This document shows positions 5,198-29,165 of a stretch of DNA of 64,000 nucleotides, piece by piece. Position numbers and translations under genes: made by a program. Every line of letters begins with the position of its first letter. Position 1 is the first letter of the stretch. Origin of the DNA: Escherichia coli O127:H6 str. E2348/69 (GTDB lineage: Bacteria; Pseudomonadota; Gammaproteobacteria; Enterobacterales; Enterobacteriaceae); NCBI RefSeq assembly GCF_000026545.1, contig NC_011601.1; one strand, written 5' to 3'. The notes under the pieces were generated by a model. It had not been told where the DNA came from. It searched no databases and saw only the letters and a list, made by a program, of their open reading frames with translations.

Positions 5198-7629
5198 TCC
5201 AGCCCCATCGCCCGCAAATGCCCGGCCACTTTCTCGCTCAACGCCTCAACGGCGGCTGCAAGTGCTGGCAACGGTTCAGCATAACGCTCTTCCAGCTCCT
5301 TTACGCGCGACGCCAGTTGCTGGGTAATACGCTCTATCTCCGCTTTGATCCCTGCCTGCAATGTTGCCAGCCACTTATCCTGCACTACCAGCGTTTTAAT
5401 CGCTGCTTCATCCAGCGTGGGATAATGTTTAAATACCGCTCGATCCAACGCTTTCTGTGCGGCTTTTAGCGCTTTTTTCGCACTGGCCTCGGCCTTAATC
5501 AGCGCCAGACAGCGGTTCAGCACTGCCAGCTCATCCGGGTCGGCAGGGGTTTTCTTCAACTGTGCCAGACGGGCATTCACCAGCTTTTGCGTCACCTTAT
5601 CTTTATCGTTTTTCGCCTCAGCCAGCAGATCCTCTTCCCCTGCCTGCTCCTCGATGAATTCCACTAGCTGACGACTGGCTTCTTCACTACGCTCCTGCGC
5701 GCGGTTCAGCGCATCCAGCAGTTCCGGGAAACAGCGAATTTCCACCAGCGAACGGGGCAGCACATCGGCCTTGTAGCGCCGTTTGGTAAACTCGAAATCG
5801 TGCGTTTCTTTCCAGATGTTTTTGCCATCTTTGCCTTTCACCGGCTGAAGCTCGCGGATTTGCGCGGCGGCTTGCCAGCCATCCTGCATAATCACATACA
5901 CATCGTCCTGCATGACATCAGCCCAGTAATCCATCAGGATCTGGTACACGCTGTATTTGTTCAGCAACTCACTGTTGGCGTACTGCGCCAATAGCATTTC
6001 GCTGATATCGTGGATTAGCGCTTTGGGTTTATCTCCTTTGCGGATCTCTTCCAGACCTGCCTCTTTTACCCACGACTTAAACGGTAGCAGGCTGCGGGTG
6101 GCAAAATCCTTAAACTCCTGATGAGCCAGAATGGTCGGTTTCACCTGCTGAGCGTCCACTTGCGCCCGGCAGTAACCGGGGTGGTCGTCAGCAAACAGCA
6201 CATTACGCAGGGCAGGGAATACCCGCCAATAATCCTTCAAAGCATCTACATCGCGCACTGGAATACCGCCTTGTAAGTGCGCGGTCAGATCGTGCAAATC
6301 TTCCGGCTCTCCACTCTCGATATAACGAGGAATATTCAGGTTGTAATCATTCCCGGCGATCTCGCTGGAGGGCACCATCCGGCTGTAGCCTGGCACCGTT
6401 CGCTGATGGTTGAACACGTCCACAATACGGTGAATATCTTGGCTACGCAGGCGGTTCTTGTTGCCATCTTTGATAAAGCCCCGACTGGCGTCGATCATAA
6501 AAATGCCTTTGCGGCTGTGGGCGTGCTCTTTATCAATCACAATGATGCACGCCGGGATGCCGGTGCCGTAAAACAGGTTGGCTGGCAAACCAATAACGCC
6601 TTTGATATAGCCCTGCTTGATTAGGTTTTCACGGATATTCGCTTCGGCGTTACCGCGAAACAGTACGCCGTGGGGCAGGATTACCGCGCCTTTGCCGGTA
6701 CTTTTCAGGCTTTTAATGATATGCAACAAAAAAGCATAATCGCCGTTTTTTTCCGGCGGAATACCCCAGCCGAAGCGTTCAAACGGATCTTTTTTTGGCG
6801 TCAGCCCGTTGGTCCAGTTTTTATTGGAAAAAGGCGGGTTCGCCACGGCAAAATCGAAGGCTTTCAGTTTGCCGTTCGCCTCTTTCCACTGCGGATCGCT
6901 CAGCGTATTGCCCTGCCAGATTTTCGCGGTGGCATTGTTATGCAGAATCATGTTCATCCGCGCCAGCGCACTGGTAGCGTTATCCATCTCTTGGCCGAAA
7001 ATCGACAGTCCGCGCCGGGCTTCATCATTCACTTTCAACAGCAGCGAACCAGAGCCACAGGTTGGGTCATAAACCGTTGCATCTCGCGGCGTATCGGGAG
7101 TAATACCAATCACCTTCGCCAGAATACGTGACACCTCCGCCGGAGTGTAAAACTGTCCTTTACTCTTGCCGGATTCGGTTGCGAAGTGACGCATCAGATA
7201 TTCATAGGCATCGCCCAGCAGATCGTCGCCTTCGACCCGGTTGCTGGAGAGATCTAACCCTTCAAAGATACCGACAAGCTTGCTCAGGCGGTCAATCATT
7301 TCCTTGCCTTTGCCGAGTTTATCTTCGTCGTTAAAGTCGGCTTCGTCGATGACGCCCTTCAGGCCGTTCTCTTCCGCCAGCTTGTGGATGATTTTGTTGA
7401 TTTTATCGCCGATCTCTTTGTCATTTTTCAGCGCAACCATATCGTCAAAGCTGGCTCCTTTGGGTATCACGATCATCCCGTAAGGATCGCCTTTATACTT
7501 ATCGGAAACGTACTTCATAAACAGCAGGGTCAGTACATAGTCTTTGTACTGGCTGGCGTCCATCCCGCCACGCAGTTCGTCGCAGCTTGCCCACAGGGAA
7601 GAATAGAGTTCGGTTTTTTTGATAGCCAT
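5191..7629 (-). CDS. hsdM: Type I R-M N6-adenine DNA methyltransferase subunit (HsdM) with a long C-terminal coiled-coil extension
   Basis: 812 aa. N-terminus is HsdM_N-like (MAIKKTELYSSLWASCDELRGG). AdoMet motif I is YDPTCGSGSLL and catalytic motif IV is VANPPFSNKNW. About 330 further residues follow YNLNIPRYIE and are rich in A/E/K/L heptad-like sequence. Confidence 0.9.
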   Translation of the reverse strand: MAIKKTELYSSLWASCDELRGGMDASQYKDYVLTLLFMKYVSDKYKGDPYGMIVIPKGASFDDMVALKNDKEIGDKINKIIHKLAEENGLKGVIDEADFNDEDKLGKGKEMIDRLSKLVGIFEGLDLSSNRVEGDDLLGDAYEYLMRHFATESGKSKGQFYTPAEVSRILAKVIGITPDTPRDATVYDPTCGSGSLLLKVNDEARRGLSIFGQEMDNATSALARMNMILHNNATAKIWQGNTLSDPQWKEANGKLKAFDFAVANPPFSNKNWTNGLTPKKDPFERFGWGIPPEKNGDYAFLLHIIKSLKSTGKGAVILPHGVLFRGNAEANIRENLIKQGYIKGVIGLPANLFYGTGIPACIIVIDKEHAHSRKGIFMIDASRGFIKDGNKNRLRSQDIHRIVDVFNHQRTVPGYSRMVPSSEIAGNDYNLNIPRYIESGEPEDLHDLTAHLQGGIPVRDVDALKDYWRVFPALRNVLFADDHPGYCRAQVDAQQVKPTILAHQEFKDFATRSLLPFKSWVKEAGLEEIRKGDKPKALIHDISEMLLAQYANSELLNKYSVYQILMDYWADVMQDDVYVIMQDGWQAAAQIRELQPVKGKDGKNIWKETHDFEFTKRRYKADVLPRSLVEIRCFPELLDALNRAQERSEEASRQLVEFIEEQAGEEDLLAEAKNDKDKVTQKLVNARLAQLKKTPADPDELAVLNRCLALIKAEASAKKALKAAQKALDRAVFKHYPTLDEAAIKTLVVQDKWLATLQAGIKAEIERITQQLASRVKELEERYAEPLPALAAAVEALSEKVAGHLRAMGLEW

Positions 7630-7668
7630 TAAATATCTCGTTTTGCGCGATAATGTGCCGTAAGTCGG

Positions 7669-7914
7669 TTACAGCAGATCGGTATTCAGACCGGCGGCCT
7701 TTAACCGACGGGTTAAGTTACGCATTTTGCTGAATTCGGTACCGAGGCTCTGGCTCAGACCAGTGCCTTCGCAAAAGGCTTTTGCCGTAATGTGTTCCAG
7801 TTTGTCGGCATATTTAATCATTTGCAGGTGCAGCTCGACGGTGTACTGGTTACGAGGCGCACTGGAAAGTGCCTGCCGGATATGGCGATAAATCTCGTCT
7901 TCATCCATATTCAT
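7669..7914 (-). CDS. Small hypothetical protein upstream of hsdM, possibly an HTH regulator; start uncertain
   Basis: The ORF track gives 7669..7983, but the first 23 codons translate the tandem repeat (LANLANLANL). MNMDEDEIYRHIRQAL from the ATG at 7914 looks like the real start. A possible helix-turn-helix is AKAFCEGTGLSQSLGTEFSKMRNL. It is co-oriented with hsdM and ends 39 nt upstream of it. Confidence 0.45.
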   Translation of the reverse strand: MNMDEDEIYRHIRQALSSAPRNQYTVELHLQMIKYADKLEHITAKAFCEGTGLSQSLGTEFSKMRNLTRRLKAAGLNTDLL

Positions 7915-7939
7915 GGTAACCACTGGTATAATGGATAAG

Positions 7940-7966
7940 TTAGCTAAATTAGCTAAATTAGCTAAA
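7940..7966. repeat. Three perfect tandem copies of TTAGCTAAA; each contains the 8-bp palindrome TTAGCTAA (candidate operator)
   Basis: Read directly: aagTTAGCTAAaTTAGCTAAaTTAGCTAAatg. Adjacent copies form 17-bp inverted repeats around a central A. The array lies just upstream (minus-strand sense) of the small ORF and the hsd operon. Confidence 0.8.
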
Positions 7967-9059
7967 TGTGGTATCAGGTTCAAGAACTACAGTGGGAGTC
8001 GGATTTGACTGCGCGATTTATGCACGTAAATGCCTTGTGGCGGATTAATGGCTGCAGTATCTTCTCCTTCCGCGCCTGCAAAATCAGGCGTCAGAATTAG
8101 CCTCCTGAAAACCGTTACAGGAGACTTCTCTATAGACTACAATCCTTGTCCCTGACTGCGATTTACTCGATCTATTGTTCGTTCCCTTATAATGCCACTA
8201 TAGATTTTACCGCCTTGGTCGACAACTGCGCCCGCTTTGCCGAATCCCTGATAGAAACCTAGGATCTTGCGCTGTAGCTTACCCTCTGCGGGCGATCTTG
8301 TACTGCTGCAACTCACGCAACACGACCTCATCCCGCCGCATCTTAACGAAAGCCTGCTCAGTGATACTCTCCCCACCATGCCAGAGCAGGTTATTTCTGA
8401 ACCTGATTCTTGTGCGAATATTGCCTCGTGCGGGCTGTGCATCATCGCCGCTCTTTGATAAGAGGCGTCAAAGGTAAGGGGCGTAGCGTTATTAGTTTGG
8501 GCTATACACTTGCGCTACAACTCTTCAAATAGCTATATATCAACAATATTTAGCCATAAACCGTCTACTTCCGTCTCAATTATACTCAAATTAAGGCATG
8601 CGGCATCTTTGTGACACATTTGTTTTTTTTATACAGGTTAGAGTTGACCTGCTCTCCGTTGATTAACTCACATTGTTGTTAACCACGTCTACTTTTAGCA
8701 CGACACTGATGCGTTAACTGAGCGAATGGTCTGCTTTGAGCGAGGAACGGACGTTCGCTTTCGGGTAACCTAACCCATATGCCAGAGGATCTCTAAGAGA
8801 TAATGGGTCGTTTAAGCGTGGCACTTACAGTATCAACGCCTCCGCACCCGACAACGTCTTGACTGCTGCAGATTCACTGAATAGACTGGTGACCTTTATC
8901 TTCATTTTGCGTGCAGCAAAATAAAGTTTTTGACTTACGAAAATCGTCGATTCGACTTAATTATACTAAGGGTTTTATGCTGACTTTTCATTGTGGGATA
9001 CACTAAATTAGTGAGATGAGAATTTATCTAACTGTCATTAACATAAGTAGGATTTAAAA

Positions 9060-9428
9060 ATGGCTAATAGCGAAATTGTTCCGTTTTCTGAAATTGTTAC
9101 AAGCAAAATAGACCTCAATCAAGCTGTAGCTCAAGGTCAAGAGATGACTGATACTCTTAAAAAAATGGGTATCAAAGAAGCGACATTTGATAGTGGAGCT
9201 TACTATAAACATGATCACGAATCGCAGACCACTACTCTTGCAGCTGATGGAATCTTGATGCGGCAGAGCCTCCACATTACAACAGTTATTTTCCGTAACG
9301 AAGGAAGTACTGAACAACAAGCTTTAGAGGAGCTTAATGCTGGTTCTCTGACACAAAAAACCTTAGGTGCATTCTCTGGAGTCTCTCAACAGAGAGCGTC
9401 TGAGCTACTCCAAATTGAAAAAGAATAA
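9060..9428 (+). CDS. Hypothetical protein (122 aa) with a possible C-terminal HTH
   Basis: ORF in a visibly AT-rich block. The C-terminus LTQKTLGAFSGVSQQRASELLQIE resembles an Xre-type HTH. I recognise no family. Confidence 0.45.
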   Translation: MANSEIVPFSEIVTSKIDLNQAVAQGQEMTDTLKKMGIKEATFDSGAYYKHDHESQTTTLAADGILMRQSLHITTVIFRNEGSTEQQALEELNAGSLTQKTLGAFSGVSQQRASELLQIEKE

Positions 9429-9441
9429 TTATAAATAGGTT

Positions 9442-9467
9442 AGTAACGGCAGTTTTCTGCCGTTACT
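9442..9467 (+). other. Perfect 11-bp stem / 4-nt loop hairpin between the two small ORFs
   Basis: agtaacggcag-tttt-ctgccgttact read directly. There is no clear U-tract, so a terminator role is uncertain. Confidence 0.5.
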
Positions 9468-9497
9468 AAGAGTATTTACTCAAAATTAGGGAGTATT

Positions 9498-9884
9498 ATG
9501 GGATTCAATGACCAGCCCAAAAACCTGAAAAAATCCATTAACGATAAATATAACAGAAGGGTAAAGTCACTTTCTCGGCATCTCGAGGATTTTATTTATC
9601 ATGCAGAAATGAAACTGGACGAATCTATTTCTGGAAGGATTTATCGCAGAAGCGAGATTGAGTCAATTGTTGAGAAAGTAAAAGAATTGATGGCTATCCT
9701 TCCGGCTTCAGATGAACCTCCTTCAATTAATTTTGATATTCTTGAAATCATTGAGAATGCAACAGAAGAAACTCAGCGCATTTTATCAGAAGGACAAAAA
9801 TTCTTCGACAACCTCTCTCCTGAAGAATTGGCAGAAATGATATCAACATTCCAACAAAATAAAAAAGATAGTGAATCTGAGTGA
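9498..9884 (+). CDS. Hypothetical acidic, helical protein (128 aa)
   Basis: Good RBS (GGGAG 7 nt upstream of the ATG). The predicted protein is Glu/Ser/Ile-rich with no motif I recognise. AT-rich codon usage matches the neighbouring ORF. Confidence 0.5.
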   Translation: MGFNDQPKNLKKSINDKYNRRVKSLSRHLEDFIYHAEMKLDESISGRIYRRSEIESIVEKVKELMAILPASDEPPSINFDILEIIENATEETQRILSEGQKFFDNLSPEELAEMISTFQQNKKDSESE

Positions 9885-10464
9885 TAACCCAGTTTAATAC
9901 GATATGAATCTAAGTCTAAACTATCAAAAAAAGCAGATAGTGAACTTAAATAGATATTATGAGAAGCTCCGAGTTTGCGTGGCTTCCTTTATCTATGTGG
10001 TCAACCTACAGACACCCAATGAAATAAATCCTTTCATTTCATTGAAGTGTTTAAATAAACTCCATCGGGAGCCTTTTTTGTTTGAAGATCTGCTCCCCGT
10101 TGATTAATACATCGTGATGTCACCAATGTCCGCTCTTGGCACTCAACTGCCATAGGCGGGCCCAAGGGCAGCTTCGAACGCAGGCTGTATGAAAACTCTG
10201 ATTGCTGATAGAAGGTCACGCGTTTTGATGACTTCTTAGAAAATTTACATAGAAAGATGATGCAGATTTTACTTAAAAGCGCAGGCGTCAGCCTCTTTTG
10301 CATTCACCTCTGAAGCTTAAACCGTTTTCACACAGTCTGAGCGAATTACAGACGCAACACTAAGTTTATTGCGCCCTTGAGCACAATCTTGACCAATGTG
10401 TAGAACTCATTGGAAAAAAAAGTGCGGAAAATAGAGAATTAACTCAAGTTTTGTTTATATAGTT

Positions 10465-10881
10465 CTAAATGAATTTATCATGCCAAAAATACGTTGCGCC
10501 AGTTACATTTTGTGCATGAACTTGCCCATATTCAAATGTAGGTTCTTTCTTCATATGTTGCGTATTCAACTCTGGTTTACTCCAATAAATCAAGTTCGCT
10601 TCAAATTCACTCAATAGTTTCTCAGCGAAATCAAAAGGCTTAATCCATTCTATTGGGATGGTTTTGCTGTTTTTTAAAAAAACAACGCAGCACAAATATA
10701 TACGCTTTGACAAATTGTCATATTTAGGATGGTGTAACTTAGTAATTGCGCTATGGCCTGAAGAAAATCGTGAGCTCTTCGATGATGTCTTGCCGATGTA
10801 AACAAGCCTTTCATTTTCATCATCTCCAACTGTAATCAAATAAATAGGATAACAAGCTAGAGGGGCCTTGATCCTACCCAC
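10465..10881 (-). pseudogene. GIY-YIG-like domain protein; its 5' end and promoter are replaced by the IS3 terminus
   Basis: PIYLITVGDDENERLVYIGKTSS resembles the GIY...YIG nuclease motif. The first 4 codons (MGRI) lie inside the IS3 inverted repeat, which starts at 10869, so the native N-terminus is lost. Confidence 0.4.
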
Positions 10882-10898
10882 GTAATATGGACACAGGC

Positions 10899-11765
10899 CT
10901 AAGCGAGGTTCTGGTTTTCAAATTGTTCCGGACTGAGGCCGCCACACCAACTGTGCCGCCGCCACCGATTGTAATCACATTCGATATAATTAAACACCGT
11001 TGCCCGCATTATTTCCCGGCTGATAAAGTGTTCTCCATGGATACATTCCACTTTCAGCGAATGAAAGAAGCTTTCCACGCAGGCATTATCGTAGCAGCAA
11101 CCTTTTGCGCTCATACTTCCACGCAGATTATGCCGCTTCAGTTGCGCCTGATAATCTGCTGAACAGTACTGGCCTCCACGGTCCGTGTGAACGATAACGT
11201 TCCGGGGCCTCTTACGCCGCCATAGCGCCATCTGCAGGGCATCGCAGGCCAGTTGCGCCGTCATGCGTGGCGACATTGACCAGCCAATAACGGCACGTGA
11301 CCACAGGTCAATGACCACTGCCAGATACAGCCAGCCTTCATCTGTACGTAAGTACGTGATGTCTCCTGCCCACTTCTGGTTCGGGCCACTGGCGTAAAAA
11401 TCCTGCTCCAACAGATTTTCTGACACAGGCAGGCCGTGTGCGCGGTAGCTGACCGGGCTGAACTTCCGGGAGGCCTTTGCCCTCAGTCCCTGATGGCGCA
11501 GGCTTGCCGCCACGGTTTTTACGTTAAAGGGGTAACCCTGAGCACGCAGTTCATCCGTCAGGCGTGGGGCACCGTAACGCTGTTTTGACCGGGTAAAAGC
11601 CGCGAGGACAACGCTGTCGCAGTGTTGGCGGAACTGCTGACGCGTGCTTATCCTTGTCCGCCGCTGACACCACGTATACCAGCCGCTGCGGGCCACCCGG
11701 AGCACGCGGCACATTGCTTTGATGCTAAACTCAGCCTGATGTTTTTCAATAAAGACATACTTCAT
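10899..11765 (-). CDS. insF: IS3 transposase OrfB (InsF)
   Basis: 288-aa ORF with an rve/DDE integrase core (WAGDITYL..., [19 protein letters not shown]). It overlaps orfA as expected for -1 frameshifting. Confidence 0.9.
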
Positions 11766-12061
11766 TTCAGGCGCTTCGCGAAGTATGTCGCGGCCTTTTG
11801 GAGGATAGCCAGCTCTTCATCCCGTTCTGCCAGCTGGCGTTTGAGACGTGCAATCTCGGTAGACATCTCCAGTTCACGTTCAGAAGACGTCTGCTGATTT
11901 TGCTGTTTACTGCGCCAGTTGTAGAGCTGTGATTCATACAGGCTGAGTTCACGGGCTGCGGCAGTAACACCGATGCGTTCAGCAAGCTTCAGGGCTTCAC
12001 TGCGAAATTCAGGCGAATGCTGTTTACGGGGTTTTTTACTGGTTGATACTGTTTTTGTCAT
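11762..12061 (-). CDS. insE: IS3 transposase OrfA (InsE)
   Basis: [40 protein letters not shown]... has an HTH plus a leucine zipper. The ORF track extends it 3 codons upstream, to 12070. Confidence 0.85.
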
Positions 12062-12127
12062 GTGAGTCACCTCTGACTGAGAGTTTACTCACTTAGCCGC
12101 GTGTCCACTATTGCTGGGTAAGATCAG

Positions 12128-12223
12128 ATATCCATTACCCGCTCGCAACTGGCAATGCTCCTCGATAAGCTGGACTGGCGTCAGCCAAAAACATCCCGCC
12201 TTAACGCACTGACAATGTTGTAA
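12128..12223 (+). pseudogene. C-terminal 31 codons of IS66 TnpB (orf2)
   Basis: My translation is ISITRSQLAMLLDKLDWRQPKTSRLNALTML*, which matches the conserved IS66 TnpB C-terminus as I remember it. It begins immediately at the IS3 end. Confidence 0.7.
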
Positions 12224-12253
12224 AAAACGCCGGGCCGGATTATAAAAACGGCC

Positions 12254-13867
12254 ATGAGTCAGAAATACCTCATTCGCATCGCTGAGCTGGAAAGGCTGCT
12301 CTCTGAGCAGGCTGAAGCCCTCCGTCAGAAAGACCAGCAACTGAGTCTGGTTGAAGAGACGGAGGCCTTCCTGCGCTCTGCACTGGCACGTGCCGAAGAA
12401 AAGATCGAAGAAGATGAGCGAGAAATAGAGCATCTGCGGGCTCAGATAGAAAAACTGCGCCGGATGCTGTTCGGAACCCGTTCTGAAAAACTGCGTCGTG
12501 AGGTTGAACAGGCTGAAGCCCTGCTGAAACAACGCGAGCAGGAAAGCGATCGTTACAGTGGGCGTGAGGATGACCCACTGGTTCCCCGCCAGTTGCGACA
12601 GTCGCGCCATCGTCGTCCGTTACCGGCACATCTCCCCCGTGAAATATACCGCCTGGAGCCTGAAGAAAGCTGTTGCCCGGAGTGTGGCGGTGAGCTGGAT
12701 TATCTGGGGGAAGTCAGCGCAGAACAACTGGAACTGGTGAGCAGCGCCCTGAAAGTGATCCGCACAGAACGGGTAAAAAAAGCCTGTACAAAATGTGACT
12801 GCATCGTTGAAGCACCGGCGCCGTCCTGCCCGATAGAGCGTGGTGTCGCGGGCCCCGGATTACTTGCCCGCGTGTTAACGGGAAAATACTGCGAACACCT
12901 GCCACTGTATCGTCAGAGTGAAATCTTTGCCCGACAGGGTGTCGAACTGAGCCGTGCATTACTCTCCAACTGGGTTGACGCGTGCTGCCAGTTAATGACG
13001 CCGCTGAATGATGCCCTGTACCGTTATGTGATGAATACCCGCAAGCTTCACACTGACGACACACCGGTAAAGGTACTGGCACCGGGCCTGAAAAAGACGA
13101 AAACAGGGCGCATCTGGACGTATGTCCGGGATGATCGCAATGCGGGTTCGTCATCTCCTCCGGCGGTCTGGTTCGCGTACTCATCGAACCGGCAGGGGAA
13201 ACACCCGGAGCAACACCTCCGCCCCTTCCGGGGTATCCTGCAGGCGGATGCGTTCACAGGTTATGACAGGCTGTTCAGTGCAGAACGTGAAGGTAGTGCG
13301 CTGACAGAAGTTGCGTGCTGGGCTCATGCCCGGAGAAAAATCCACGATGTATACATCAGCAGCAAAAGTGCGACGGCAGAAGAAGCCCTGAAGCGAATCA
13401 GTGAACTGTACGCCATCGAGGATGAAATACGGGGATTACCAGAGTCAGAGCGTCTTGCAGCCAGGCAGCAGCGAAGCAAAGCGTTACTGACGTCGCTGCA
13501 TGAATGGATGGTGGAGAAGAATGGCACGCTGTCGAAAAAATCCAGACTGGGCGAAGCGTTCAGCTATGTACTGAATCAGTGGGACGCCCTCTGTTATTAC
13601 AGTGATGACGGTCTGGCGGAGGTGGACAATAACACAGCGGAAAGAGCGCTTCGTGCAGTCTGTCTCGGAAAGAAAAATTACGTGTTCTTCGGTAGCGATC
13701 ACGGCGGCGAGCGTGGAGCACTGCTGTACGGGCTGATCGGCACCTGCCGACTGAACGGTATCGATCCGGAAGCGTATCTGCGCCATATTCTGAGCGTACT
13801 GCCGGAATGGCCCTCCAACCGTGTTGACGAACTCCTGCCATGGAACGTAGTACTCACCAATAAATAA
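12254..13867 (+). CDS. IS66-family transposase TnpC
   Basis: 537 aa. It has an N-terminal coiled coil, a CPECGGEL zinc motif, and a DDE region (HTDDTP..., LQADAFTGY, DNNTAERALR). Confidence 0.9.
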   Translation: MSQKYLIRIAELERLLSEQAEALRQKDQQLSLVEETEAFLRSALARAEEKIEEDEREIEHLRAQIEKLRRMLFGTRSEKLRREVEQAEALLKQREQESDRYSGREDDPLVPRQLRQSRHRRPLPAHLPREIYRLEPEESCCPECGGELDYLGEVSAEQLELVSSALKVIRTERVKKACTKCDCIVEAPAPSCPIERGVAGPGLLARVLTGKYCEHLPLYRQSEIFARQGVELSRALLSNWVDACCQLMTPLNDALYRYVMNTRKLHTDDTPVKVLAPGLKKTKTGRIWTYVRDDRNAGSSSPPAVWFAYSSNRQGKHPEQHLRPFRGILQADAFTGYDRLFSAEREGSALTEVACWAHARRKIHDVYISSKSATAEEALKRISELYAIEDEIRGLPESERLAARQQRSKALLTSLHEWMVEKNGTLSKKSRLGEAFSYVLNQWDALCYYSDDGLAEVDNNTAERALRAVCLGKKNYVFFGSDHGGERGALLYGLIGTCRLNGIDPEAYLRHILSVLPEWPSNRVDELLPWNVVLTNK

Positions 13868-29077: not shown

Positions 29078-29165
29078 TGGCGGTGAGGGGGGGATTCGAA
29101 CCCCCGATACGTTGCCGTATACACACTTTCCAGGCGTGCTCCTTCAGCCACTCGGACACCTCACC
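29078..29165 (-). tRNA. serX: tRNA-Ser (anticodon GGA)
   Basis: The reverse complement reads GGTGAGGTGTCCGAGTGGCTGAAGGAGCACGCCTGGAAAGTGTGTATACGGCAACGTATCGGGGGTTCGAATCCCCCCCTCACCGCCA (88 nt). It has a long variable arm and an encoded CCA. Its position upstream of ghrA identifies serX. Confidence 0.95.

Follow-up and report, generated by a model that had tools for sequence, protein, structure and literature searches.

The ORF1-ORF2 pair beside the RptR-R-M-DarTG-M48 island of Escherichia coli E2348/69 is probably a hotspot cassette of integron origin

What is the AT-rich block that stands beside a published defence operon in enteropathogenic Escherichia coli (EPEC), and do the small genes that it carries belong together? 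The block occupies positions 8480-10868 of a 64,000-nucleotide stretch of DNA (64 kb; hereafter the window), which is 100% identical to the chromosome of EPEC strain E2348/69, and it contains two small open reading frames, designated ORF1 and ORF2, and a GIY-YIG-like gene convergent with them. The first-pass annotation, which was made from the letters of the DNA without database searches, took the three genes to be a single, horizontally acquired cassette in a defence island, and proposed that a small helix-turn-helix (HTH) protein and its partner might form a toxin-antitoxin (TA)-like pair. The compositional part of this description is borne out: the GC content is 38.2% for 8480-10868 versus 50.0% over the whole window, which makes the block the poorest in GC of all 2389-bp windows (0.08% of windows as low), while GC at third codon positions (GC3) is 0.29 for ORF1 and 0.32 for ORF2 as compared to 0.62 for hsdM. 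The horizontal acquisition of the block is likewise upheld. Its supposed unity is not, as the block reads as a mosaic of two unrelated imported pieces (8729-10142 and 10125-10868), the first of which, carrying ORF1 and ORF2, is probably a hotspot cassette with former integron genes as its cargo. The features on which this argument turns are as follows.

8729-10142, plus strand: mobile module (hotspot cassette) with ORF1 and ORF2, 1.41 kb
8729-8752: H2 palindrome, the left border (GTCTGCT-TTGAGCGAGGA-ACGGAC)
8734-8829, plus strand: leader segment of the module, 95 nt
9001-9013: perfect 13-bp palindrome CACTAAATTAGTG, 47 nt upstream of ORF1, a candidate operator
9060-9428, plus strand: ORF1, 122 aa, RefSeq hypothetical protein WP_000013660.1
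9440-9469, plus strand: stem-loop with a perfect 13-bp stem (9440-9452 / 9457-9469) and a 4-nt loop
9498-9884, plus strand: ORF2, 128 aa, RefSeq WP_000506573.1
10126-10142: H1 palindrome, the right border, 5' arm and loop only (ATGTCCGCTCTTGGCAC)
10125-10868: lambdoid-prophage accessory fragment, joined to the module inside the shared H1 17-mer
10465-10868, minus strand: GIY-YIG-like remnant, residues 76-209 of a 209-aa prophage protein, 99% identical
10869-12126 (right end approximate), minus strand: IS3 insertion sequence (IS), which truncates the GIY-YIG gene

The interval 8729-10142 recurs at 90-95% identity in five other settings with unrelated flanks, in Yersinia and on metagenomic contigs, and each of these settings is a defence island or a prophage. 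They are listed here by locus.

L013: metagenomic enterobacterial island, adjoining PDC-S71
L016/L017: Yersinia enterocolitica, with DUF4238 and AbiE close by
L033: Mu-like prophage, at its end, alongside the invertase and tail-fibre genes
L035: an HNH gene on one side, AAA_13 / SIR2_2 genes on the other
L032: ORF2 half only, between two giant STAND NTPase genes

The homology of the module to the other copies starts at H2, and on the right it ends at an identical position, 10142, in four settings (L016, L032, L033 and L035). A diverged pair is present in Pectobacterium brasiliense, where ORF1 and ORF2 exhibit 76% and 50% protein identity, respectively, and the genes are 12 nt apart. Among 5426 complete E. 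coli genomes, 8480-10124 is present in three, all of which are O127:H6 records. ORF1 was found as the first-pass annotation had described it and is annotated in RefSeq; its family comprises 29 close homologues and is represented by 61 clusters at 50% identity among 1.84 billion representative proteins, with members of 33-151 aa (most of them 110-130 aa) and no fusion to any other domain, while 28 homologues were found for ORF2. Across copies of both genes the ratio of non-synonymous to synonymous polymorphism (pN/pS) is 0.13-0.47, and 0.27-0.44 for ORF2, and the two accordingly read as genuine, conserved genes under purifying selection. In locus L032 (736-11751), genes for an nSTAND3 protein (1270 aa) and a NACHT-like protein (1342 aa), each inside its own H2...H1 pair, flank the ORF2-only cassette.

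The second piece of the mosaic, 10125-10868, is 98-99% identical in about 280 of the 5426 complete E. coli genomes, in which ORF1 and ORF2 are absent. There, as in locus L002, it adjoins tail-fibre genes in a lambdoid prophage at icd and encodes a 209-aa protein. The convergent GIY-YIG-like ORF was present at 10465-10868 as had been noted, with its motif residues visible (PIY...VYIGKT...R..GH...E..LI...P.LN) and with a match to Pfam GIY-YIG (E=3.4e-4, 21.3 bits) just below the cut-off of 22.6 bits. It also matches phrog_16890 (E=5e-27), a catalogued family to which no function is assigned, and a PHROG endonuclease family (E=4.6e-4). The earlier statement that none of the three proteins belongs to a named family consequently holds for ORF1 and ORF2, for which no family was found in Pfam, PHROGs, NCBIfam or PADLOC, and fails for the GIY-YIG remnant. 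The adjoining IS3 element, annotated in RefSeq as an IS3-family transposase with a programmed frameshift and bearing its terminal repeat TGATCCTACCC from 10868/10869, has removed the first 75 codons and the promoter of the gene, which is therefore most likely dead, i.e., a likely pseudogene; RefSeq annotates no coding sequence at 10465-10868. Phage morons and GIY-YIG nucleases are its closest parallels, in that the fragment derives from an accessory region beside lambdoid tail-fibre genes and has visible residues of the GIY-YIG catalytic motifs; it differs in being truncated by IS3, it lacks the 75 N-terminal residues and the promoter, and it is unrelated to the ORF1-ORF2 module. The notion of one three-gene cassette is thus abandoned, and a false lead is removed with it, as the GIY-YIG gene lies outside the unit and is probably dead.

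The module is delimited by two related 22-bp palindromes, designated H1 and H2. The consensus of H2 reads GTCYGCT-WWGAGCGARR-ARCGGAC (TCYGCTWWGAGCGARRARCGGA) and that of H1 reads GTCCGCTYY-TGGCAC-ARAGCGGAC (TCCGCTYYTGGCACARAGCGGA). A full H1 (GTCCGCTCT-TGGCAC-AGAGCGGAC) is present at the equivalent position in L003, L004, L033 and L035, while E2348/69 has retained only its 5' arm and loop because the prophage fragment is joined through the shared 17-mer. The so-called H2/H1-bounded hotspot cassette, a class defined in this analysis, has H2 on its left and H1 on its right in the same orientation. The window module is flanked by both palindromes in the right orientation, and the slot that it occupies holds other cargo elsewhere, i.e., a gene for a 314-aa protein in L003 and ParA with two further genes in L004 (strains MLI114 and OHT76-1), in each case between the same H2 and H1. 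Furthermore, H1 marks the start of the backbone that precedes a yeeP-type GTPase gene in about 1500 E. coli genomes.

An exact-pattern scan for H1 in IMG/VR returned at least 120 contigs, and the statistics that follow are from the 120 prophage loci listed (L040-L159). These loci contain 146 H1 and 146 H2 sites, as compared to none in shuffled sequences. The sites delimit 83 intervals with the order H2...cargo...H1, which are 0.5-5.8 kb long, and form 23 tandem junctions of the type H1-(18-20 nt)-H2. The right flanks of H1 fall into two large conserved classes, while the left flanks are highly diverse. In the first backbone, which is P2-like (FI/G), the cassette is located between the tail sheath and tail-fibre-assembly genes; in the second, which is lambdoid, it is located between DUF968 and DUF977 genes. 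The H2...H1 cargo among these loci forms 69 protein clusters and includes PD-T7-1, PD-T7-5, Tmn, CBASS and Pycsar cyclases, ThsB, DRT, DarG and AbiGi. In P2-like and lambdoid prophages, what the palindromes bound is swappable anti-phage cargo; in CP4-like islands the cargo between them is variable. The same H2...cargo...H1 layout indicates that the ORF1-ORF2 module is one more cassette of a widespread hotspot system. It resembles the P2/P4 hotspots (PMC9122126, PMC13586616) in being a variable cargo slot between conserved backbone, and the P2 sheath/tail-fibre-assembly hotspot, the cargo of which consists of known anti-phage systems, is bounded by the same H2 and H1. It differs from them in that its host is a CP4-like island with remnants of a P4-type immunity leader, and not a P2 or P4 genome, and in that its cargo has no known defence function. 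H1 and H2 are possibly undescribed: a keyword search, which is weak evidence, found no mention of the palindromes in the main P2/P4 hotspot papers, PMC9122126 (2022) and PMC13586616 (2026, Nucleic Acids Research).

Breakpoints cluster at the palindrome ends and, as the palindromes are conserved, this fits site-specific and short-homology recombination alike. A bolder proposal would make H1 and H2 the recombination sites of an integron-like cassette-exchange system that shuttles defence genes among P2-like, lambdoid, Mu-like and CP4/P4-like elements, with ORF1-ORF2 as a new anti-phage or anti-mobile-element system recruited from the integron pool; this is unlikely on present evidence. If H1 and H2 were true recombination sites and not shared punctuation, they would explain the swapping of defence genes between phages, satellites and islands, and would offer a simple sequence handle for mining new cargo. 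The TGGCAC of H1 was also considered as the -24 box of a sigma-54 promoter and was rejected by eye, there being no GC at the required spacing.

If the module is the vehicle, where did its two genes come from? Homologues of both ORFs occur as gene cassettes of sedentary chromosomal integrons such as the Xanthomonadales ilvD-linked one. They are single promoterless genes there; each has an attC site (R'' ...AAC / R' GTT...) behind it, and their arrays adjoin an integron integrase. An attC was defined as an imperfect palindrome of 57-141 nt that follows an ORF and reads R'' RYYYAAC ... R' GTTRRRY. For example, in Stenotrophomonas sp. MYb238 (L008) the ORF1 homologue is one cassette of an array with at least 16 attC sites, which adjoins ilvD and an integron integrase (481 bits on TIGR02249). 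An attC begins at or just after the ORF1 stop codon in six loci (L007, L008, L012, L018, L024 and L025), and the attC on the other side of the gene ends about 35 nt short of the ORF1 ATG. The loci share a GTTACCTGTC-type motif at this point, of which E. coli retains a recognisable form, CTAACTGTCA. The genes downstream of ORF1 are non-homologous between loci, and the 'variable partner' that follows it in integron arrays is simply the next cassette. ORF2 homologues are similarly found as single cassettes with no ORF1 nearby, both in a Xanthomonadales-type array (L029/L031), with an attC on both sides, and in Halomonas (L038/L039), where the downstream attC was identified by model and the upstream attC by eye only. 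ORF1 and ORF2 are independent units, each from an orphan family that beyond the Enterobacterales consists of single-gene integron cassettes, every one with an attC of its own. The array of L008 spans 5673-13852, its attC sites are near-identical, and its cassettes include two Imm53 genes and a DUF6984-like gene.

The enterobacterial copy no longer has this arrangement. No integron integrase is annotated in the window region and, unlike the Stenotrophomonas homologue with its integrase and attC array, the window has neither an integrase nor a recognisable attC; instead, it has a 320-nt leader, and the two genes move together in a cassette of another kind. What is present between the two ORFs is a hairpin, which the first-pass annotation had described as perfect, with an 11-bp stem. 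A perfect hairpin is indeed there, with a stem that is longer than claimed, at 13 bp. Its folding energy is -24.4 kcal/mol (z = -5.8), which was equalled by none of 200 shuffles. As the plus strand lacks a T-run after the stem, the hairpin was rejected as a canonical terminator. It occupies the position at which attC follows ORF1 in the integron copies, with AAC...GTT kept, and the distances from stop codon to hairpin and from hairpin to ATG fit cassette geometry; at 30 nt, it falls short of the length of a working attC, and it is devoid of the unpaired features of attC. The hairpin is degraded in L013 and L016 (Yersinia) and absent in Pectobacterium, and homology with the ORF2-only locus L032 begins at 9436, four bases before it. 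It is a mark of the cassette junction, and from its sequence the chances that it represents a collapsed attC are about even.

The proteins themselves were compared with known families and folds. The first-pass annotation had likened the C-terminus of ORF1 to an Xre-type HTH, and this motif, TQKTLGAFSGVSQQRAS, is the best-conserved part of the family. In the AlphaFold2 model of ORF1 (mean predicted local distance difference test (pLDDT) score of 74, predicted template modelling (pTM) score of 0.65), an N-terminal helix and a five-strand antiparallel beta meander are followed by three C-terminal helices at residues 85-91, 99-106 and 110-121, the last two of which contain the invariant family motif TQ...GA..G.SQ..S; the Xre fold has five helices, whereas this model has only three C-terminal ones. 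In Pfam, ORF1 itself does not match HTH_3 and matches MarR_2 below threshold (E=0.066), while single family members exhibit sub-threshold matches to HTH_3, Sigma70_r4 and MarR_2 at E values of about 0.002-0.009, HTH_3 being matched by one of the 52 members (E=0.0019). ORF1 is possibly a DNA binder with a C-terminal HTH, which is plausible, and could in that case have a regulatory role. The palindrome CACTAAATTAGTG is identical in L013 and L016. A similarity of ORF1 residues 10-53 to ribosomal protein uL18 in searches of PDB profiles (E=0.36) was non-significant and was taken as chance. ORF1 matches none of the families in PADLOC-DB 2.0; it has no relatives in IMG/VR or in the 120 H1-bearing prophage loci listed, and relatives in only two of 185,579 species genomes. 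The description of ORF2 as acidic and helical, with a strong ribosome-binding site (RBS), stands: its isoelectric point (pI) is 4.9, with 26 D+E versus 18 K+R, four helices are predicted (pLDDT 72, pTM 0.42), and a GGGAG RBS is located 6 nt ahead of the ATG. Against PADLOC-DB 2.0 it returned no defence model and only noise at E values of 0.012 and above. The predicted structures of ORF1 and ORF2 have no meaningful structural neighbour, and neither was assigned to any solved fold.

These observations suggest the following course of events. Two integron cassettes would have come to lie side by side in an enterobacterial ancestor, where the working attC was lost and the 13-bp hairpin was left at the junction; a leader of roughly 320 nt would then have been gained, and the pair would since have moved as a single hotspot cassette. 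In E2348/69 the module is a self-contained cargo cassette in the variable slot of a CP4/P4-like island, beside the operon of RptR, type I restriction-modification (R-M), DarTG and M48. ORF1 and ORF2 would represent autonomous conflict or defence cargo with no dedicated partner, ORF1 most likely being a small oligomer that binds DNA by its C-terminal HTH, with the palindrome at 9001-9013 as its candidate site, and ORF2 being an acidic, helical protein with no assignable activity. The anatomy and the origin of the cassette as former integron cargo in a hotspot are considered probable, while a defence function for the two proteins, as suggested by their neighbourhood, has somewhat less than an even chance.

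Several observations weigh against this account. The attC covariance model did not detect the hairpin in 7000-12000, its best match (E=0.25) lying elsewhere in the region, although this model captured only the 5-bp R-box pairing and is weak at detecting degraded sites; with no hit from the model in 7000-12000 and a hairpin too short to function as attC, the case for an integron ancestor of the enterobacterial copy is one of gene homology and geometry. The adjacency of ORF1 and ORF2 has been kept from E. coli to Pectobacterium despite their divergence, with a spacer of 12 nt, and could reflect functional coupling beyond mere linkage. No copy of the module was found in the GenBank phage set, and on plasmids nothing was found past the 95-nt leader. 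As regards function, it is the neighbourhood that would assign a defence role, PADLOC holding no defence model that matches ORF1 or ORF2. The acidity of ORF1 (pI 4.9) is atypical for a small DNA binder, none of the HTH models scores above threshold against it, and the structure models are of moderate quality (pLDDT 72-74 for the two proteins, with the pTM of ORF2 below that of ORF1).

Of the other explanations, the one that survives best is that ORF1 is a transcription regulator which, like RptR, BrxR or CapW, stands in front of variable defence genes, and that ORF2 is merely the first regulated cargo. ORF1 is located upstream of, and co-directional with, the defence gene in all four non-integron loci that have an adjacent defence gene, the gene orders of which are as follows.

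L013: ORF1-ORF2-PDC-S71
L014: ORF1-SspBCD
L022: ORF1-pVip
L026: ORF1-RptR homologue-263 aa-PDC-M38A

The HTH-like, conserved C-terminus of ORF1 and the perfect palindrome 47 nt upstream of the gene are in agreement with such a role. In integron arrays, however, the cassettes around ORF1 are shuffled, an arrangement that a dedicated regulator would not tolerate, and the right border of the module is unchanged with or without a following defence gene; furthermore, no HTH model is significant and ORF1 is acidic. Dedicated regulation is thus improbable, albeit the best placed of the alternatives. In the metagenomic locus L026 (342-985), the homologue of RptR (HTH_73) starts 30 nt after the ORF1 homologue and is followed by a 263-aa protein and the PDC-M38A ATPase; ORF1 and RptR, which are divergent neighbours in E2348/69, are thus direct neighbours there.

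The TA-like or abortive-infection pair of the first-pass annotation, in which ORF1 would be an HTH antitoxin and autoregulator and ORF2 the effector, ranks slightly lower. It resembles a type II TA system in comprising two small, adjacent genes on mobile DNA, the first with a possible DNA-binding motif; the genes are co-directional, with 69 nt between them and a strong RBS ahead of ORF2, they are located in a defence island, and they are held together in E. coli, Yersinia, Pectobacterium and metagenomic enterobacteria. Obligate co-occurrence, as is required of a type II TA system, is nevertheless not observed. Homologues of both genes exist, and yet their pairing is confined to Enterobacterales: ORF1 lacks an adjacent ORF2 homologue in at least ten loci (L007, L008, L012, L014, L018, L019, L022, L024, L025 and L026), being a single, attC-bounded integron cassette in at least six, while ORF2 is found without ORF1 in L038 (Halomonas), in L029 (the Xanthomonadales-type array) and in L032, the one enterobacterial locus with ORF2 alone, its breakpoint being at the hairpin. 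Neither protein is toxin-like or matches a toxin or antitoxin family in Pfam or PADLOC, and both are acidic. As the genes are separable and elsewhere are single integron cassettes, ORF1 and ORF2 are probably not a TA pair.

It is doubtful, to a somewhat greater degree, that the pair consists of orphan immunity proteins directed at polymorphic toxins of the type VI secretion system (T6SS) or contact-dependent inhibition (CDI) type and retained as a shield from other bacteria. Both proteins are small, acidic and cytoplasmic, ORF1 is found among Imm53 cassettes in Stenotrophomonas, the Pectobacterium pair is 1.6 kb from a PAAR-Pyocin_S toxin with immunity genes, and a VgrG gene is 6 kb away in L012; yet neither protein is similar to the Imm families of Pfam, no cognate toxin gene is adjacent at any locus, and the enterobacterial contexts are mostly anti-phage islands and prophages, and not toxin loci. 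An equally doubtful view is that the two genes are neutral hitch-hikers, at present without function in E2348/69, for which their restriction to the O127:H6 lineage among complete E. coli genomes, the decay of the surrounding region through IS3, IS66 and IS30 insertions and the hairpin decay in sister copies may be cited, and which is countered by the purifying selection on both genes, by intact ORFs with good ribosome-binding sites and by the repeated recruitment of the module into different islands.

The reading of ORF1 and ORF2 as autonomous hotspot cargo is consistent with what is known of the adjoining operon. In RefSeq, the minus-strand operon to the left of the block comprises genes for an M48 peptidase, hsdR, darG, darT, hsdS, hsdM and a small 'HTH-like' gene, and is followed rightward by two plus-strand hypothetical proteins, IS3, IS66, IS30, a frameshifted GTPase gene and an Ag43 fragment. 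This operon corresponds to the published RptR-RMS-DarTG-M48 (RRDM) island of EPEC (Zhang et al. 2025, PMC12255303), which confirms the predicted defence-island context. The 'HTH-like' gene (7669-7908) is rptR (Pfam HTH_73, E=2e-28), and its operator is located as follows.

7935-7970: RptR operator (PMC12255303), three 9-bp direct repeats with TAGCTA

An RRDM clone with only 159 bp upstream of rptR conferred defence in DH5alpha (PMC12255303). This clone excludes ORF1 and ORF2, which go unmentioned in that paper, and both ORFs are thus not needed for R-M/DarTG defence; RRDM, an immediate neighbour on the same island, is a separate, divergent operon that works without them. A fourth copy of the RptR repeat family, at 9003-9020, was rejected as an RptR site as it reads TTAGTG, which is outside the accepted TAGCTA variants (PMC12255303).

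ORF1 and ORF2 are small, tractable candidates for new conflict or defence functions, being conserved, under selection and located in slots that otherwise hold proven anti-phage systems. Their history also suggests a link between integron cassette arrays and the defence hotspots of prophages and islands, which are usually treated apart.

The leader of the module has relatives of its own. Its 95 nt are 81-83% identical to unannotated DNA on 35 large conjugative plasmids of Klebsiella and Citrobacter, where (L036 4001-4096; L037 4001-4102) an H2-like hairpin precedes the match and an IS1618/IS5075-like element of the IS110 family abuts its end, which suggests, from sequence, that the end of the segment is an IS target. 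The module start was also considered as the bridge-RNA end of an IS110 element; a comparison of many copies places the left end of the IS just past the 95-nt match, which is consequently flanking target DNA outside the IS. An 18-nt direct repeat, CTGCTCYCCGTTGATTAA, has two matches in the 64 kb, as compared to 0.08 expected by chance.

8649-8666, plus strand: left copy of CTGCTCYCCGTTGATTAA, in the island backbone upstream of H2
10090-10107, plus strand: right copy of CTGCTCYCCGTTGATTAA, within the 3' end of the module

The right copy has been kept in every copy of the module, and the IS110-family element of L036 has a CTGCTCYCCGTTGATTAA-like sequence close to its right end. Between ORF2 and H1, the conserved 3' stretch of the module (9904-10107) contains a 67-aa ORF that is unannotated, as well as a short stem with T6 after it (about 10060-10082); this stretch is probably non-coding, with a weak terminator.

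Outside the module, an Rfam search returned no match within 8480-10868, while 8059-8133 exhibits sub-threshold matches to c4-a1b1 (34 bits, E=3.5e-6) and isrK (34 bits), and 8054-8431 is similar to the region of the 'ash family protein' in other islands. This stretch resembles what is left of a P4/P1-type antisense-RNA immunity leader, and points in the direction of ORF1. The only tRNA gene in the window, tRNA-Ser(GGA) at 29078-29165 on the minus strand, is a possible integration site of a neighbouring island.

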